The translations under genes and the position numbers were made by a program. DNA of 64,000 nt, taken from Cyclobacteriaceae bacterium. Lineage in GTDB: Bacteria > Bacteroidota > Bacteroidia > Cytophagales > Cyclobacteriaceae. The DNA is taken from assembly GCA_019638285.1 (NCBI GenBank), contig JAHBUB010000006.1, positions 44,219 through 108,218 of the forward strand, written 5' to 3'. The notes beneath the pieces were generated by a model. It made no database searches. It was not told the origin of the DNA and saw nothing but the letters and a program-made list of their open reading frames with translations. Shown in pieces: positions 56,730 to 64,000 of this stretch (its first letter is position 1; every line of letters begins with the position of its first letter).

Positions 56730-59078
56730 TTAAAACTCAATCCGATAGCTTAGTATAGGTAATAGCGGTAACTGATACCATTTTTTAATGTCGCCACTGC
56801 TTGTATCAAAATATTGGCCTCCCAGGTTTTGATGGTTGGTAATATTTTGAATATCCAATGACAAAGTAGAAGTTGATCTGTCTTTGTTTCTTTTCAGGCT
56901 CACACGAAAGTCTGTTCTGAAATAATTGGGCAATTGTTCTGTAAAGGCAAGATTTTCCACATATTGGGTTTGCCCTTCTGCTACGCTTTTTTGATAATCA
57001 ATGGGTGTATCTCTGAATCCTCCTGTATAGATAGTTCTTATGTTCAAGCCAAAAGTTCTATTCTTTTTCCAATTGTATTCTTTACCGCCAGTGAAGCTAA
57101 AAGCAAAATTCCCGTTAAATCGTGAGTTGCGCAACACGCCATCCAGCGCTTTATATTTCGAATCATAAAGTGAAGAGGAAAGGAGAAAATAAGTATTGTT
57201 GTGAAAGAATTGCTCCAAAGTAAGTTCAAGGCCGTAATTTCTTCCTGTGCCTTTGTTCACCAAGGGCTTGGTCAAATATCCTTCTTCTACCACCAAAGTA
57301 GAAATTGGGCTAGTAGGGTCATCTTCTACGGCTATGTTATACAAGGGTTGATAATACGTCTCTGCCTTTATTCGGGTGTATTGACTTAGTGCACGATCAT
57401 AAGCCAGAACAAAATGCTGTGACTTGTTCAACCCCACATTTTTATTGGGTTGGGTAATGTTTCCCATTCCATCATCAATTTCAGTTTCATATATTCCTAT
57501 CGGTTGAACCTGACTGTGTGATCCATATCCTACACTGATCGATTGTTTATCATCAAGAGCATATTTTAACGATGCCCGGGATTCTAAAGACTTGGAATGA
57601 TTATCTGTTAGCTCTAAATAATGCAATCCGACATTCATAGTTATCCGATCCGTTATTCTGTGATTCCATTGAGAAAATAATTGAATGGTATTGGCCCTGC
57701 TCTTTGAATTGAGAAACTCATCTACGGCTTGTGTTTCTGAGTTTCGTTTTCTTAACTTGAGATTATAAAAATATTGATTGAAATAAATGCCTGATCGTAA
57801 ACTGTTTTTTGCATTGAATTTGTGATTGAGTACCGAGCTGACAGTTATTTTTTCATTCAAATATTTTTGTTGATATTCAAATCTTCGTGAGTAGTCGTCC
57901 TCCACCCTAAACTCATCATCTCCATTGTTGTTGCCGGAAAATAAAACAGAAGATTGCACGTAGGTGTTGTTGCCCACATTGAACAAGTGCTTAACTCCAG
58001 CAGCACCCGTGTTGGAAAAATATCTTGAATCATAACGTAAATATTCCTCCTCCCATTTTGTTGAATCTCTGTCAGCCTCTTGCTTCTGATCACTCAATCC
58101 GCCAAACCCAAACAAAGAAAAATTACCAAATCTATTGGTCGGCATATAAAAGTGATAACTGAGGTCTTGAAAATTAGTAACAGCATCTCCAATATTTACA
58201 CCCAGCTTACTAAGAACACTCAAAGTTGAGTATCTATAATTGATCAAATACGAACCTTTATAATCTTTGCTAAATGGGCCTTCGACTGCTACATCTGTTC
58301 CTAAAAAACCAGCCTGCAAAGTATATTCTCTTTTTTCATTATTCCCTTTTCGGAGGTTTAGATCAAAAACACCTGCCAATGCATTTCCATATTCCGCTGG
58401 AAAGGCTCCCGTAATAAAATCAGAGTTGGTTAGCAGTTGAGAACTCAAAATCGAAATGCCTCCACCGGAAGTGCCCACATTGGCAAAGTGGTTGGGGTTG
58501 GGAATATCTACTCCTTCCATTCTCCACAACAAGCCATAGGGCGAGTTACCTCGAATAGAGATTGTGTTGTTACCATCATCTCCGGAGACTACGCCTGCAT
58601 AAGAATTGACCATACGGGCAGGGTCATCAACGGCCGCAGCAAACTTACGGGTTTCTTCTACTGAGAATGTGCGCGCACTCACCACAGCCATTTCGTTGAG
58701 AGGCCTATCTTTATCAACGTCCGGCCTTACAATAATCTCGTCCATTTGCGTAATGTCTTCTTCAATGGCAACATTTAGCACTACTTCCTTACCGGAATTC
58801 ACCGTAATATTTGGCAAGACCATTTCTTTATAACCAATAAAAGAAATTCGCAACGAGATATTTCCTACCGGCACATTGGTGAGCTTAAAATTCCCATCAT
58901 AGTCGGTGGTGGTGCCAACAACGGGGTTTGAGCCGATAATAATAATGGTGGCGCCAGGTAACGCAGTTTGCGTTACTCTATCGAGCACCTGCCCTCTTAC
59001 GGTTTGATTAAGGCCTTGTGATGATGCGGTAAACACGGTAAAAAGGGTCATTGCGATCGTTAAACTCAGTTTTGACAT
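56730..59078 (-). CDS. TonB-dependent receptor with N-terminal carboxypeptidase-regulatory-like domain
   Basis: Signal ASS|Q. Plug NTISIRGNSP...EG..IPNPNHF. C-terminus LPILSYRIEF. Confidence 0.92.
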   Translation of the reverse strand: MSKLSLTIAMTLFTVFTASSQGLNQTVRGQVLDRVTQTALPGATIIIIGSNPVVGTTTDYDGNFKLTNVPVGNISLRISFIGYKEMVLPNITVNSGKEVVLNVAIEEDITQMDEIIVRPDVDKDRPLNEMAVVSARTFSVEETRKFAAAVDDPARMVNSYAGVVSGDDGNNTISIRGNSPYGLLWRMEGVDIPNPNHFANVGTSGGGISILSSQLLTNSDFITGAFPAEYGNALAGVFDLNLRKGNNEKREYTLQAGFLGTDVAVEGPFSKDYKGSYLINYRYSTLSVLSKLGVNIGDAVTNFQDLSYHFYMPTNRFGNFSLFGFGGLSDQKQEADRDSTKWEEEYLRYDSRYFSNTGAAGVKHLFNVGNNTYVQSSVLFSGNNNGDDEFRVEDDYSRRFEYQQKYLNEKITVSSVLNHKFNAKNSLRSGIYFNQYFYNLKLRKRNSETQAVDEFLNSKSRANTIQLFSQWNHRITDRITMNVGLHYLELTDNHSKSLESRASLKYALDDKQSISVGYGSHSQVQPIGIYETEIDDGMGNITQPNKNVGLNKSQHFVLAYDRALSQYTRIKAETYYQPLYNIAVEDDPTSPISTLVVEEGYLTKPLVNKGTGRNYGLELTLEQFFHNNTYFLLSSSLYDSKYKALDGVLRNSRFNGNFAFSFTGGKEYNWKKNRTFGLNIRTIYTGGFRDTPIDYQKSVAEGQTQYVENLAFTEQLPNYFRTDFRVSLKRNKDRSTSTLSLDIQNITNHQNLGGQYFDTSSGDIKKWYQLPLLPILSYRIEF

Positions 59079-59100
59079 AAATTTTATCTTTTTATGCCCT

Positions 59101-59130
59101 TATGACAACCGAATATGAAAAAACCCCTAT
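59101..59130 (-). promoter_or_regulatory. Putative ECF promoter of the TonB receptor
   Basis: Minus strand ATAGGGGT-N12-GGTTGTCATA. Same boxes and spacing as at 62641-62670. Confidence 0.75.
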
Positions 59131-59145
59131 GTGATTAGTAAAAAA

Positions 59146-61011
59146 TTATAAAAACCTGATTCCCACTTTGCCTCCCCACCACATTTCCATTTCATTGCCG
59201 TTGGAGAATGTATGGCGCTTAATAATGGTGGGTGTGAAGTCAGTAAAAAGCTGTGGGTTGTCACTGTAGGTGGGATCATATATGTATGCATTGAGCGTTG
59301 CCCCTGCCGTAATTGAAAATTTTCGAGCAACCTGAAAATCAAAACCGACATACAGCTTATTGAGCAAACTGATTGAATTAGTAAAACTTCCTTTATTAAC
59401 TTGATTTGCTGTTAGATCAAAATTTAAATACAACCAATTGGTAAGCTTCGGTGCAGTACCTACACCATAACCGAAAGACCAAACATTTTGATCGGCACTT
59501 ACTGGAACAGATAGATCATACGAACCATTAAGGGTTTCGGGTTTTAGTCCGGCCTCAAGTATGTTATAAAAATGTCTTACCCCTGTTCTAAAAGCTGCAT
59601 TGACATAAAATATTTCGTCCGCTGACAACTCAATTTTATGATATCCATTACTTACAAAACTTAGCAATCCAATAGGAATTCCCTTTATGCTATCCGCATA
59701 ATTAATCAACCCAATTTGAGCGCCTTTTATGTTATGAGCAAAATTAATTAGCCCGGCTACTTGGGTTCCATGCATTTGGTGAGTGGCTACATTCAAGAAT
59801 CCGGCAAATTGAGAACCCGTATAGTAACTCGGTTGCACATTAAACAAGCCTGCAAATTGTGCGCCTTTAGAAGGTCGTCCATTTACATTGAACAAGCCAG
59901 CAAATTGTGCACCTTGCACCGAATCCAAATTGGTGTTAAACAAGCCAGCAAATTGAGCTGCACTCACTTTTTTACGGGTGAGATTTCCAAGCCCAGCCAT
60001 TTGCATACCCTTTGTTGTTCCTCCAACCGTGTTAAACAAGCCAGCAAATTGCGCGTGCTGTACATTTCCCTTGTCAATATTAAACAACCCTCCCACCTCC
60101 AATTTGTTGGTACCCATTGAATAACCACCCAACGCGTTGAGTGAATAATCGTTAACTACGTTTCCACTCAGTTTTTGATTGGTGCCCATAAAGGGGAGAA
60201 ACGAAAATTGAAAATCCCTATGCAGGGTATCCCGAATGTTGTTCATGTTGGCATCGCCCTTTTTTCCAGAAAAAATGTTTTTTGAGAATACCTTTTCCTG
60301 AAGGAAGGTTCGGAATGATTTCTTTTCCGAAACTGGTTCTGATTGCACCACAGGCGGCTGAATATTTATTGGAACAGCTACAACTTGCAAAGTATCATCA
60401 GCAGGATGCACTTCAACTATTTCCACTTTTTCAGGACGCATTACCATATTGATGAATTGGGTATTAGAAGCGGTCAATGTTGCAAGCGTATCCATAAAAG
60501 TACGTCTGCTGAAATACAAGGTGCCCGCCTCACTTGGATTGTCAAGGGTAATTTTAAAAAAACCAAATTGATCCGTGATTACACCGGCAAGGGATTTCTT
60601 GTCGAACACACTCACTTCCGAAATTTTCTCACCGTTTTCATCCGTTACATACCCACTTACGGTAACGGTATTATTCACAACTTCCTTTTTAGTGAGTTCA
60701 GGCGTTTTGGTAAGAATAATATAGTTCCCCTTGCCTTTGGCGGTTATCGATTCTCCAAATAAACTATTGAGTATCTCCCGAACAGATTTTTTAGAAAATC
60801 CTTCCTTCACCACATGGCTGGTATTCAATATGGACGGGCTATAAGAAAATGTAAACTTACCTTCCCTGGAAAGTTGGCTCAACGCTACTTCAATGGGTAC
60901 ACTTTTAAAGGAAATAGTTAGCTCTCGCTCTAATGGCGGAATGGTTTGCCCCCAACTTGTAGAAATTGAGAACATGATTGCAAGAAAAAAGCTTGATAGA
61001 TATTTTCTCAT
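59146..61011 (-). CDS. STN + carboxypeptidase-regulatory-like + G-x-Q-h-A-G-h-h-N repeat protein with barrel-like C-terminus
   Basis: N-terminal STN-like AL.QLS.EG.FTFSYS, then VSGYVTDENGE.I..VSV, then 16-aa repeats. Ends WWGGKVGIRFL. Confidence 0.78.
   Translation of the reverse strand: MRKYLSSFFLAIMFSISTSWGQTIPPLERELTISFKSVPIEVALSQLSREGKFTFSYSPSILNTSHVVKEGFSKKSVREILNSLFGESITAKGKGNYIILTKTPELTKKEVVNNTVTVSGYVTDENGEKISEVSVFDKKSLAGVITDQFGFFKITLDNPSEAGTLYFSRRTFMDTLATLTASNTQFINMVMRPEKVEIVEVHPADDTLQVVAVPINIQPPVVQSEPVSEKKSFRTFLQEKVFSKNIFSGKKGDANMNNIRDTLHRDFQFSFLPFMGTNQKLSGNVVNDYSLNALGGYSMGTNKLEVGGLFNIDKGNVQHAQFAGLFNTVGGTTKGMQMAGLGNLTRKKVSAAQFAGLFNTNLDSVQGAQFAGLFNVNGRPSKGAQFAGLFNVQPSYYTGSQFAGFLNVATHQMHGTQVAGLINFAHNIKGAQIGLINYADSIKGIPIGLLSFVSNGYHKIELSADEIFYVNAAFRTGVRHFYNILEAGLKPETLNGSYDLSVPVSADQNVWSFGYGVGTAPKLTNWLYLNFDLTANQVNKGSFTNSISLLNKLYVGFDFQVARKFSITAGATLNAYIYDPTYSDNPQLFTDFTPTIIKRHTFSNGNEMEMWWGGKVGIRFL
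59843..60051 (-). repeat. In-frame 48-bp tandem coding repeat
   Basis: AACAAGCC(A/T)GCAAATTG at 59843, 59891, 59939 and 60035, with a degenerate copy at 59987. Confidence 0.9.
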
Positions 61012-61012
61012 A

Positions 61013-62008
61013 TCAATCTCCGCAACCAGTTCCGTTAAGAATGTATACCTCTCCCTCTTTGGTCAAGGTTAATTTTAATGTCTCAGCAATGATTTCAACA
61101 ATATCCTCAATCCTTTCATTTCTAAAAGTTACATTCAGCAGACAGGTTTTAATAGCGTCATTACCCAATCGTATTTTTGTATCATACACTGCATTGAGGT
61201 CGCCCACAATCGTTTCTAAATCAGCATTACGGAAACTAAATACGCCAGTTTTATAAGCCAGTTGGTTGGCATTCACCGTCTGAATTCTGGCAAAGGACTT
61301 ACTCTGTTTGTGATAAACTCCCGTTTCGCCAGCAACCAGATTCAGCCCAGCATTGTTGAGTGTATAAAAAGCTACTTCACCCGATTCAACATAAACTTCT
61401 ATGGTTGGGCTTTCTGGAAAAGCAAGGACGTTAAAGGTGGTACCAATGTCTTCAATGATCACGTCCCCTGTTCTTATAATAAAAGGTTCAGCTTCTGCAT
61501 GTTTAACCTCAAAAAAAGCTTCTCCTTCCAACTCAACCTTTCGTTGGCCTTTTCTTTTATTATAAGCGTACTTAATGGTGCTGCTTTTGTTTAGTACTGT
61601 CCTACTTCCATCAGGAAGGGTGTCTCTTACAATTTCGGTTTGTGAGGTCAGTGTAATTGTTTGATCAGGTGTGTTGAGTTGTTGATAAGTTATCCATCCC
61701 AAACCAATTGCTACCAGCAACACGGCAGCCACTTTCAATACCTTGAAGTATGGGGAAAAAGCAACTTGCTTTCTCGCTGGCTGATGCATTTTAGATTTAA
61801 CTTTTAGCCAAGCCGCGTCCACATCAAATGATTGGATTTCATTGACGCTTTTAGCCTTATCAAAAATTAATTTGAAATGATCATAATGAGCTTTGTTGGA
61901 ATCACTGATCGCGATCCATTCCTCTACCTGAGTACGCTCCACTGCCGAAGCTTCTCCGGAAAGGCACTTTCCAATTAAATCATCAATATGGTCAAACGTC
62001 TCTTTCAA
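61013..62008 (-). CDS. FecR family anti-sigma factor
   Basis: N-terminal helix, one TM, TLPDGS...LN.SS.I.Y, V.L.GEAFFEV, GTTFNV, C-terminal DUF4974-like F.NADL..IV..L...Y. Confidence 0.94.
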   Translation of the reverse strand: MKETFDHIDDLIGKCLSGEASAVERTQVEEWIAISDSNKAHYDHFKLIFDKAKSVNEIQSFDVDAAWLKVKSKMHQPARKQVAFSPYFKVLKVAAVLLVAIGLGWITYQQLNTPDQTITLTSQTEIVRDTLPDGSRTVLNKSSTIKYAYNKRKGQRKVELEGEAFFEVKHAEAEPFIIRTGDVIIEDIGTTFNVLAFPESPTIEVYVESGEVAFYTLNNAGLNLVAGETGVYHKQSKSFARIQTVNANQLAYKTGVFSFRNADLETIVGDLNAVYDTKIRLGNDAIKTCLLNVTFRNERIEDIVEIIAETLKLTLTKEGEVYILNGTGCGD

Positions 62009-62011
62009 TCG

Positions 62012-62590
62012 TTAACTAATAAAGCCATTCATTACAATAATAAGTATGGGTAAATACTCCTTTAATTGTTCGCGCATTATTTTTAATGCTTTTCCAATTT
62101 GGTTCTCCACCGTTTTAACAGAAATATTTAATTGTGCTGCTATCTCAGCATATTTCAACTCTTCGAATCGGCTCATCTTAAACACAAGGCGACATTGCTC
62201 TGGCAATTTTAATAAGGCATCCCCTATTCTTTGGTCCAGTTCAACAGAAATAACCGCCTGTGAAACCGATTCATAACTATTATCCAAAGTTGCAAGAGAT
62301 TCTTCGGCATGCTTCTTTTTAATTTTCGCATGCTTGATGGAATTGAGGCAACTGTTGCGAACAGCCCGATATAAATATGACTTCAGCGAAGTTTCGATAG
62401 TAATGCTCTCCTTTTTCTCCCAGACATTGATAAAAGTAGCCTGGACCATTTCTTCTGCTTCATCACGATCAAGTAAAAATGTATAGGCGTATTTGCACAG
62501 TGGGTCGTAGTGTGACTTAAAAATCATCTCAAAAGCGGTTTCGTCCCCTTCTTTAAGCGCCTTAAAACGGTCGATTTCCGCTAATTCCAC
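62012..62590 (-). CDS. ECF sigma-70 factor (Bacteroidota FecI-like)
   Basis: AFE.IF..HY..LC.YA, SLKSYLYRAVRN.CLN, LPEQCR.VF.MSRFE.LKY.EIA..LNISVKTVE.QI.KALK. Confidence 0.95.
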   Translation of the reverse strand: MELAEIDRFKALKEGDETAFEMIFKSHYDPLCKYAYTFLLDRDEAEEMVQATFINVWEKKESITIETSLKSYLYRAVRNSCLNSIKHAKIKKKHAEESLATLDNSYESVSQAVISVELDQRIGDALLKLPEQCRLVFKMSRFEELKYAEIAAQLNISVKTVENQIGKALKIMREQLKEYLPILIIVMNGFIS

Positions 62591-62640
62591 TGATTTCCAT
62601 TGGTTTTAGCACAATTTACGTTTTTGGGGCATTTTGGTTC

Positions 62641-62670
62641 TATGACAACCCAAAATGGTTATACCCCTAT
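62641..62670 (-). promoter_or_regulatory. Putative autoregulatory ECF promoter
   Basis: Minus strand ATAGGGGT-N12-GGTTGTCATA, 50 nt upstream of the sigma start. Confidence 0.75.
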
Positions 62671-62778: not shown

Positions 62779-63423
62779 TTATTTCACTGCACCTGTTTCA
62801 AACTGATAAATTTTTAGGAGGTCGTTATTTTCATTTACGGTAACTTCCAGGTCTTTGATCAAACCATTCCGGATGTCATACACCCAGCCATGGATAAAAG
62901 GGCTTTTGGATTCACTCCATGAGTTTTGTATGATAGAAGTCTTGCCCAAATTATAAACCTGCTCAATTATATTGAGTTCAATGAACCTACTTTCTCTCTT
63001 ACCTATATCGTGTATGTCATCCAATTCTTTCTGATGAAATCGATAAACGTCTTTGATGTGCCTGATCCAATTATCAATAAGTCCAAATTGTTGATTGCTC
63101 ATGGCCGCCTTTATCCCTCCACATCCATAATGACCGCACACAATCACATGTTGTACATTCAAAATACTTACCGCATAGTCCAATACACTCAGCATGTTCA
63201 TATCCGTATTCACTACCATGTTGGCAATATTGCGGTGAACAAAAACCTCACCGGGAGGGGCGCCAATTATTTCGTTAGCAGGCACTCTGCTATCCGCACA
63301 TCCTATCCACAACAAAGGTGGCTTTTGACCCTCTGCCAATTTGCTAAAGTATTTTGGGTCACTCGAAATCATTCTCTCCACCCACTCCCTATTATTCTGC
63401 AATAACTTATTATATAGTTCCAT
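62779..63423 (-). CDS. can: Beta-class carbonic anhydrase
   Basis: WIGCADSRVP, FVHRNIAN, VCGHYGCGG. Confidence 0.96.
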   Translation of the reverse strand: MELYNKLLQNNREWVERMISSDPKYFSKLAEGQKPPLLWIGCADSRVPANEIIGAPPGEVFVHRNIANMVVNTDMNMLSVLDYAVSILNVQHVIVCGHYGCGGIKAAMSNQQFGLIDNWIRHIKDVYRFHQKELDDIHDIGKRESRFIELNIIEQVYNLGKTSIIQNSWSESKSPFIHGWVYDIRNGLIKDLEVTVNENNDLLKIYQFETGAVK

Positions 63424-63428
63424 TAAGT

Positions 63429-64000
63429 TTAGTTTAGTTCGTTAGTTTGTTTTACTAATAATTCTTCTATGCCGTTTGCATCTTTCTTCTTAAGGTTCTC
63501 CGCTAACCATGCAGTTGCTTTTTCAAAATCTTCAAAACAGTGAGATACAGGTACGAGCTTCGGAATTATTCCTAATTTTTCGAATTGTTCTTTTACATTT
63601 TCACGCAGTCCACTGAACAACACCCACGTATTGTTTTTGTTTAGATCGCGGATAACATCCATCAGCGCATACATTCCTGATTGGTCTGCAAACGAAAGGT
63701 GCTTGAACCTAAAAACAACAGCCTTCATGTTTGGGCTCTTGCTAAACTGCTCTTGAAATTTTGAGGAAAATCCAAAGAAAAGTGGGCCGTGAAATTCCTG
63801 AATAAATACCTGATCGGCATGGTGAGATGTGTTTATTTCTTTTAACTCATCTTCACTATCAGGATGGTCGTTAGCTGGATCCATAGTACTGGCTTCATGG
63901 CCTTGTTCAGCTGATCGCTTCACAAAAAATAAGGTCGACAACACTAATCCAACCCCAACTGCCCACAACAAATCAACAAATACTGTCATCGCTACTACCA
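63429..64000 (-). CDS. SulP/SLC26 anion (bicarbonate) transporter, 3' part with STAS domain
   Basis: Frame is open to the window edge. VFVDL..AVGVG, GPLFFG, F..L.F.DQSG..AL. Directly upstream of the carbonic anhydrase. Confidence 0.9.
   Translation of the reverse strand, partial: VVAMTVFVDLLWAVGVGLVLSTLFFVKRSAEQGHEASTMDPANDHPDSEDELKEINTSHHADQVFIQEFHGPLFFGFSSKFQEQFSKSPNMKAVVFRFKHLSFADQSGMYALMDVIRDLNKNNTWVLFSGLRENVKEQFEKLGIIPKLVPVSHCFEDFEKATAWLAENLKKKDANGIEELLVKQTNELN

Follow-up and report, generated by a model that had tools for sequence, protein, structure and literature searches.

A candidate cell-surface signalling module of Bacteroidota in which an STN domain is carried by a predicted repeat-barrel outer-membrane protein and not by a TonB-dependent transporter

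Here we analysed a stretch of 64,000 nucleotides (nt) from a Cyclobacteriaceae bacterium (GenBank assembly GCA_019638285.1, contig JAHBUB010000006.1, positions 44,219 to 108,218 of the forward strand; hereafter the window, in whose coordinates all positions are given) and, within it, four consecutive minus-strand genes encoding an extracytoplasmic function (ECF) sigma factor, a FecR-type anti-sigma factor, a protein of 621 amino acids (aa) and a TonB-dependent receptor of 782 aa. What defines cell-surface signalling is a TonB-dependent transducer with a double role in import and signal transmission. Taken together, the sequence comparisons make it fairly probable that these genes form a non-canonical module of such trans-envelope signalling, in which the STN domain would reside on a membrane protein that is not a transporter and the promoter of the sigma factor would also drive a separate transporter gene. 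The conserved core of the module is the trio formed by the sigma factor, FecR and the STN protein, with the receptor often, though not always, among the targets.

The initial annotation of this locus had assigned an STN domain to the repeat protein encoded directly after FecR and not to the TonB receptor, and this assignment held. Because the direct search of this copy of the 621-aa protein was negative (no Pfam match to PF07660, the STN family, even at E ≤ 10), the identity of the domain was established through the family and through a paralogue. Among 34 aligned full-length homologues, 28 match PF07660 (best E = 1.5e-11) and all 34 match CarbopepD_reg_2; in the wider homologue search, PF07660 is carried by many of the relatives at 40-50% identity and approximately 100% coverage. 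Within the same genome, the closest relative of the N-terminal 226 aa is the product of a gene lying directly after another FecR gene, a transducer with STN/FecR_C-like, N-terminal extension (NTE), Plug and TonB_dep_Rec domains, and the 621-aa protein aligns to this transducer over STN and NTE with a BLASTP E value of 2e-14. The AlphaFold2 (AF2) model, built on the homologue alignment (mean predicted local distance difference test score, pLDDT, of 80), folds aa 30-102 (60706..60924) into a beta-alpha-beta domain with pLDDT values of 78-90. On homologue profiles, paralogue alignment and predicted fold, the N-terminal domain is thus identified as STN. At least two canonical pairs of a FecR gene followed by an STN-NTE-Plug-barrel gene occur in this genome (G000:C67:121255-121920, locus L002, and G000:C9:15939-16394, locus L004), so that the place after FecR is the transducer's place; the same pairs could serve as internal controls. 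Between the signal peptide and the STN fold lies a P-x-L-E-R motif (PPLER here, aa 25-29, 60925-60939), in which P25, L27, E28 and R29 are invariant in 34 of 34 aligned homologues and which was not seen in the canonical in-genome paralogue.

The whole 621-aa protein (59146..61011) is a predicted outer-membrane protein consisting of a signal peptide, STN, NTE, a linker, a solenoid of 16-aa repeats and a small barrel, an organisation drawn from the profiles, the alignment and the AF2 model, a check that the initial annotation had proposed. The NTE, a CarboxypepD_reg-like domain (aa 115-190; 60442..60669), gave the only match of the Pfam scan (CarbopepD_reg_2, PF13715, aa 118-201, E = 3.9e-08), and no family was matched at E ≤ 10 in the N-terminal 116 aa or in the C-terminal 355 aa; Foldseek superposes it on the NTE of SusC (9hfj) with a template modelling (TM) score of 0.85, and the SusC NTE was also the only match when the profile of the protein was searched against PDB sequences. 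It is followed by a poorly conserved linker (aa 199-251; 60259..60417), disordered in the model (pLDDT < 50) and gapped in the alignment, then by a beta-solenoid of short strands (aa ~263-453; 59653..60225; pLDDT ~90). The repeats behind this solenoid keep an exact 16-aa period with the pattern GxQxAGxxN, as had been described beforehand, in eight copies at aa 305-432 (6-12 copies across homologues), and NCBIfam assigns to the protein an LA_2272 repeat match and a weak VC2662 match; Foldseek returned nothing significant for the solenoid. The C-terminus is modelled as a small beta-barrel of long strands (aa ~457-621, the strands reaching aa ~620; 59149..59643), with weak-E-value Foldseek matches to the 8-10-strand barrels OpcA, Ail, NspA, OmpX and OmpA. 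It ends in ...GIRFL, and the family shares a conserved C-terminal aromatic signal, WWGGKVG(I/L)RF(L/F). One additional weak Foldseek match of the model was to the N0 domain of PilQ.

No Plug or TonB_dep_Rec match was obtained with Pfam on the 621-aa protein, and the model lends no support to a 22-strand barrel, so the protein does not qualify as a TonB-dependent transducer; since it lacks a plug, its independence from TonB is plausible. A classical autotransporter was also considered and rejected, as no autotransporter Pfam family was matched and the model has no helical linker between solenoid and barrel. The absence of any helix or membrane crossing between these two parts of the model makes it simplest to suppose that solenoid, linker, NTE and STN would all be periplasmic, the protein then forming a stalk toward FecR. 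A TonB-box-like stretch, VEIVEV (aa 197-202, 60406-60423), lies at the disordered linker; KVEIVEV is aligned opposite the TonB box LDEIIVT of the paralogue, and the stretch is kept in close relatives and not conserved in distant homologues.

The gene that follows, 67 nt downstream, encodes the 782-aa receptor (56730..59078), with a signal peptide, an NTE, a TonB-box-like DEIIV, a plug and a barrel of the 22-strand type. It was correctly said before to lack an STN domain: its signal peptide is directly followed by the NTE, from aa 26 on, which leaves no room for STN, and no STN match was found in the receptor or in its 27 aligned orthologues. The orthologues, 65-78% identical in this highly conserved family, carry the NCBI name "TonB-dependent receptor"; all 27 match Plug (E ≤ 0.01) and 7 of 27 match PF00593 (TonB_dep_Rec_b-barrel), the receptor's own Plug score being 22.3 bits against a Pfam cut-off of 23.9. 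The AF2 model of the receptor, which at a pLDDT of only 57 was used for fold class alone, gave 199 Foldseek matches at E ≤ 1e-3, the top 50 of which are all TonB-dependent transporters. Read off the sequence, MDEIIVRP after the NTE resembles a Bacteroidota TonB box. Membership of the SusCD systems was rejected: TIGR04056 (SusC/RagA) does not match the receptor at E ≤ 0.01, its sole match being to the NTE region of the 621-aa protein (aa 117-201, 27.5 bits against a cut-off of 368), and no SusD-like gene follows the receptor, in keeping with the initial annotation; the next genes encode an FA_hydroxylase protein (56601-55783) and a DUF427 protein (Pfam).

The two regulatory genes are of standard families, and the order of sigma factor, FecR and repeat protein given earlier is borne out by coordinates and profiles. 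The sigma factor (62012..62590, 192 aa) is of the FecI-like Bacteroidota type, with Pfam matches to Sigma70_r2 (PF04542, 1.1e-11), Sigma70_r4_2 (PF08281, 1.6e-17) and ECF families and a TIGR02985 score of 175.6 bits against a cut-off of 126.4. The anti-sigma factor (61013..62008, 331 aa) shows an N-terminal anti-sigma region, a single hydrophobic transmembrane helix at about aa 85-107 (read off the sequence) and predicted periplasmic FecR (PF04773, 1.6e-15, 57.7 bits) and FecR_C (PF16344, 3.3e-12, 46.7 bits) domains, both above cut-off. The tight packing of the three genes stands, with gaps of 3 nt (sigma to FecR) and 1 nt (FecR to the 621-aa gene) by longest-open-reading-frame calls in place of the 2 and 4 nt first given. 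An ECF classification paper assigns FecR-linked Bacteroidota sigma factors to groups ECF239/240 and does not describe a partner of the present kind.

The connection between the trio and the receptor gene comes from a promoter-like motif. Pattern search and conservation identified two minus-strand copies of ATAGGGGT-N12-GGTTGTCATA, one (62641..62670) ending 50 nt before the start codon of the sigma gene and the other (59101..59130) ending 22 nt before that of the receptor. The two 30-nt copies are identical at the 18 specified positions, with 0.04 matches expected in the window, and they are the only copies in the whole 3.98-Mb genome, also under the looser pattern TAGGGGT-N14-TTGTC; the earlier proposal that the receptor has its own copy of the sigma promoter is thereby strengthened. 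The motif also lies 5' of the sigma gene in 16 related loci and 5' of linked receptors in five (L005, L006, L010, L022 and L065); in L021 and L027 it differs by one base. It accompanies the receptor when the genes are unlinked as well: genome G015 has the motif exactly twice, at the sigma operon and, on another contig, 5' of a receptor orthologue of 51% identity, and in G011 a one-base variant precedes an unlinked orthologue. Across 35 sites, flanking bases that the pattern does not require are also kept (T at position 2 in all 35, A at position 3 in 33 and TA after TTGTC in 29). We infer that the motif is an autoregulated ECF promoter, given where it lies, its two-part structure with GTC in the downstream element and its occurrence 5' of the sigma gene.

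The survey of the architecture, which had also been suggested at the outset, showed that the trio is widespread. The 621-aa protein occurs in 42 of 121 genomes of the order (32 of 76 genera), mostly in single copy and in matches without internal stops. A homologue search found at least 1,465 relatives, and a profile search of 1.84 billion representatives at 50% identity yielded 2,368 proteins under an E-value limit of 1e-30, of which the best 150 are nearly all full-length; more than 100 invariant columns are spread along the family alignment. We examined the gene order in 27 trio loci, including the window, drawn from several orders of the class. The succession of sigma, FecR and STN protein is kept in 27 of 27, and anti-sigma factor and barrel protein are separate open reading frames here and in all related loci. 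In five loci (L023, at G073:C1:74000-84000, and L066, L067, L068 and L069) the STN protein is directly followed by a stand-alone repeat-barrel paralogue of about 375-410 aa with neither STN nor NTE, and in L023, L067 and L069 this paralogue is preceded by TAGGGGT-N14-TTGTC. At nine loci (L007-L009, L011, L013, L019, L020, L064 and L070) neither receptor nor paralogue was found within the DNA fetched. The same is true of L015, in which a small barrel gene diverges from the sigma gene behind its own motif copy. The motifs of L015 (G060:C59) stand back to back at ~1628 (-) and 1679 (+), facing the sigma operon and a 218-aa OMP_b-brl protein on the opposite strand.

Several observations weigh against the proposed module or narrow its scope, in addition to the missing STN match in our own copy. 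The receptor is not a fixed partner, being downstream and co-oriented in only 12 of the 27 loci and convergent in one; no receptor orthologue at E ≤ 1e-100 was found in the trio genomes G031 and G073, nor any receptor within 7 kb downstream at three syntenic metagenome loci. Several distant trio loci have no strict motif, and in L024 (~6671), L068 (~3503) and L071 (~2708) the motif is placed 3' of sigma and 5' of FecR, a position from which it would drive FecR and the STN protein but not sigma; the protein that binds the motif could also be a regulator other than this sigma factor. Finally, L017 (G076:C9:755000-764000) contains an orphan 677-aa STN-NTE-repeat-barrel gene with no adjoining sigma or FecR gene.

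The genomes of relatives hold between two and five motif sites each, against two here, and the genes that follow these sites extend the candidate regulon. DUF2807 (GIN domain) proteins are preceded by the motif in L010 (11242-11987), in L065 (3637-4422) and at G065:C22:427070, a DUF4097 'toastrack' lipoprotein at G073:C1:425925, small barrel proteins of about 210 aa once in G022 and twice in G060, and another TonB-dependent receptor in G060. The DUF2807 gene of L065 separates the FecR gene from that of the STN protein. Since the putative sigma motif thus also precedes other outer-membrane proteins, the formula of one sensor and one separate transporter, as first read, appears too narrow. The broader claim of the initial annotation, that sensing and transport are split, stands in part. 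In its favour are the STN on a protein not of the TonB type and the STN-less receptor that shares the motif both linked and unlinked; the irregular presence of the receptor and the other motif-preceded genes speak against it as a general description.

Placing these results into a mechanism, the inner-membrane FecR-type anti-sigma factor would hold the ECF sigma factor, and its periplasmic FecR_C domain would pair with the STN of the presumably co-transcribed 621-aa protein instead of with that of a TonB-dependent transducer. The small C-terminal barrel may anchor the 621-aa protein in the outer membrane, with solenoid, linker, NTE and STN extending into the periplasm. When the 621-aa protein binds a ligand, is damaged, is lost or is misassembled, its contact with FecR through STN would end or be altered, FecR would then be degraded and the sigma factor freed. 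The sigma factor would transcribe from TAGGGGT-N14-TTGTC promoters, in this genome those of its own operon and of the adjacent STN-less receptor, and in relatives probably also those of stand-alone repeat-barrel paralogues, DUF2807/DUF4097 proteins and small beta-barrel proteins.

What the 621-aa protein perceives can be seen in more than one way. One idea, which we put forward tentatively, is that it acts as a periplasm-spanning ruler or guard, a barrel with a rigid solenoid stalk (6-12 turns depending on species) holding STN on FecR. In that case the module would respond to physical properties of the envelope (outer-membrane integrity, assembly or spacing) and not to a nutrient, and would retune outer-membrane protein content as a two-protein counterpart of the Dma anti-sigma factors made of cell-surface-signalling parts. 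Stated as a general alternative, envelope-integrity sensing seems to us rather unlikely: a barrel-anchored solenoid stalk would guard FecR by keeping STN on it, the guard would be lost when the outer membrane is damaged, assembly fails or the periplasm widens, and degradation of FecR would let the sigma factor remodel the outer-membrane protein content, in a function like that of Dma. The core is single-copy and syntenic in many genomes, as a housekeeping function would be; the motif-preceded genes of relatives all encode envelope proteins, including those of 'toastrack' type (DUF4097/DUF2807) and small barrels; the uninterrupted passage from solenoid to barrel suggests a periplasmic stalk, and repeat number varies from 6 to 12. 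A guard role of STN (PMC11637429) and the Dma systems (PMC10927553) provide precedents. On the other side, the sole extra target in this genome is a TonB-dependent receptor, a better fit to nutrient uptake than to stress repair, and the placement of the solenoid rests on the model.

A second alternative would retain canonical TonB-dependent signalling and distribute it over two polypeptides, the STN-less receptor being the TonB-driven sensor and transporter, to which the 621-aa protein lends its STN in trans, for example by docking. The frequency with which the two genes adjoin in the same orientation (12 of 27), the motif shared even when they are unlinked, the NTE present on both proteins, the strong conservation of the receptor family and the TonB-box-like stretch that persists in the linker of the 621-aa protein are all compatible with such a transducer. 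Nonetheless we judge it improbable, as G031, G073 and the three syntenic metagenome loci keep the trio without a receptor by the limits given above, the motif precedes unrelated outer-membrane proteins in relatives, and the two NTE domains have no detectable mutual similarity. The last observation also led us to reject an origin of the two genes in a split through NTE duplication. That the 621-aa open reading frame is a decayed or mis-assembled gene, a functionless remnant of a canonical STN transducer as its transducer-like N-terminal 200 aa and the missing Pfam call for STN might suggest, is so exceedingly improbable as to be excluded by the conservation of the family (full length in more than 1,400 proteins and across the 2,368 representatives at 50% identity, with over 100 invariant columns, no internal stops in matches, a confident solenoid and barrel fold and a conserved C-terminal aromatic signal).

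The preferred reading, a core trio with an STN carrier that is not a transporter, can be set against several known systems. With FecI-FecR-FecA and SusC-type signalling it has in common the sigma and anti-sigma families, an STN (and NTE) protein encoded right after FecR, apparent autoregulation of sigma and a TonB-dependent receptor as target; it differs in that the STN carrier has a solenoid and a small barrel in place of plug and 22-strand barrel, and in that the putatively induced receptor lacks STN and no SusD is present. In FoxA, STN binds the C-domain of FoxR in the absence of signal and shields FoxR from proteolysis (PMC11637429). The PUMA3 system of Pseudomonas aeruginosa (VreA-VreI-VreR) likewise encodes, together with an ECF sigma factor and a FecR-type regulator, an STN-bearing protein other than a TonB-dependent receptor. 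VreA has no barrel and is small and mostly soluble in the periplasm, with a TolA/TonB-C-like second domain (PMC2729926), whereas our carrier has an NTE, a solenoid and a predicted outer-membrane barrel, matched nothing TolA-like, and belongs to a different phylum with a different regulon; membership of the VreA type was rejected on the predicted barrel and solenoid and the absence of a TolA-like match. In Dma systems a disordered linker joins the anti-sigma factor and an 8-strand outer-membrane barrel in one polypeptide, with an ECF21-type sigma factor and neither FecR nor STN (PMC10927553). Our module would have in common with them a Bacteroidota ECF sigma factor coupled to a small outer-membrane barrel that is not a transporter, and an envelope-directed regulon; here, in contrast, anti-sigma and barrel belong to two proteins, whose contact would run through STN and FecR_C, and Dma membership was rejected for this reason. 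The 16-aa GxQxAGxxN-type repeat is also that of the LA_2272 repeat (NF047436) and VC2662 (NF047437) families, both uncharacterised; the VC2662 profile has only 187 positions and is shorter than the multidomain 621-aa protein. We found neither family recorded in connection with STN or sigma signalling, and no functional study on VC2662, LA_2272 or this architecture, VC2662 being mentioned only as a hypothetical protein (PMC10865864).

The module is hence presented as a widespread and so far undescribed variant of cell-surface signalling, in which sigma, FecR and STN parts appear to be wired to an outer-membrane protein that is predicted to be unable to act as a TonB-type transporter. The arrangement recurs in about a third of the genomes sampled from the order and extends to other orders of the class, the protein family counts thousands of sequence clusters, and because the promoter is short and sharply defined the candidate regulon can be read from sequence genome by genome. 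It bears on the role of STN once uncoupled from transport, on the control of FecR without TonB-driven movement of a plug and on the role of the uncharacterised LA_2272/VC2662-type repeat, and it corrects the annotation of proteins so far named by their domains alone or as "hypothetical".

The repeat-barrel module by itself reaches further than the trio, occurring in 61 of 301 genomes of the phylum. In another class of the phylum (L061-L063), the repeat-barrel proteins measure about 495 aa, bear a different N-terminal extension and are encoded in a conserved neighbourhood of PagL-like, cyclophilin and MsrB genes, and no sigma or anti-sigma gene adjoins them. We therefore rejected a general tie between this module and sigma systems, and the link to sigma is confined to the STN-bearing form. 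The neighbours of the orphan gene of L017 encode transketolase, cyclophilin, DinB and GTP cyclohydrolase I.

A lipid cargo, which the initial annotation had weakly read from the FA_hydroxylase gene 3' of the receptor, was not sustained: this neighbour is not conserved, being set off by two opposite-strand genes in L005 and missing in L006 and L010, and has no upstream motif. The lipid genes near the second synteny type run on the opposite strand, and they too lack the motif. As for the surroundings of the trio, a SulP/STAS transporter and a beta-carbonic anhydrase gene lie 5' of sigma in the window (62779-63998), a synteny kept in one clade (L005, L006 and L010), and a second clade has DUF4254 and heptosyltransferase genes upstream and FA_desaturase, phosphatidylserine (PS) decarboxylase and CdsA genes downstream on the opposite strand.

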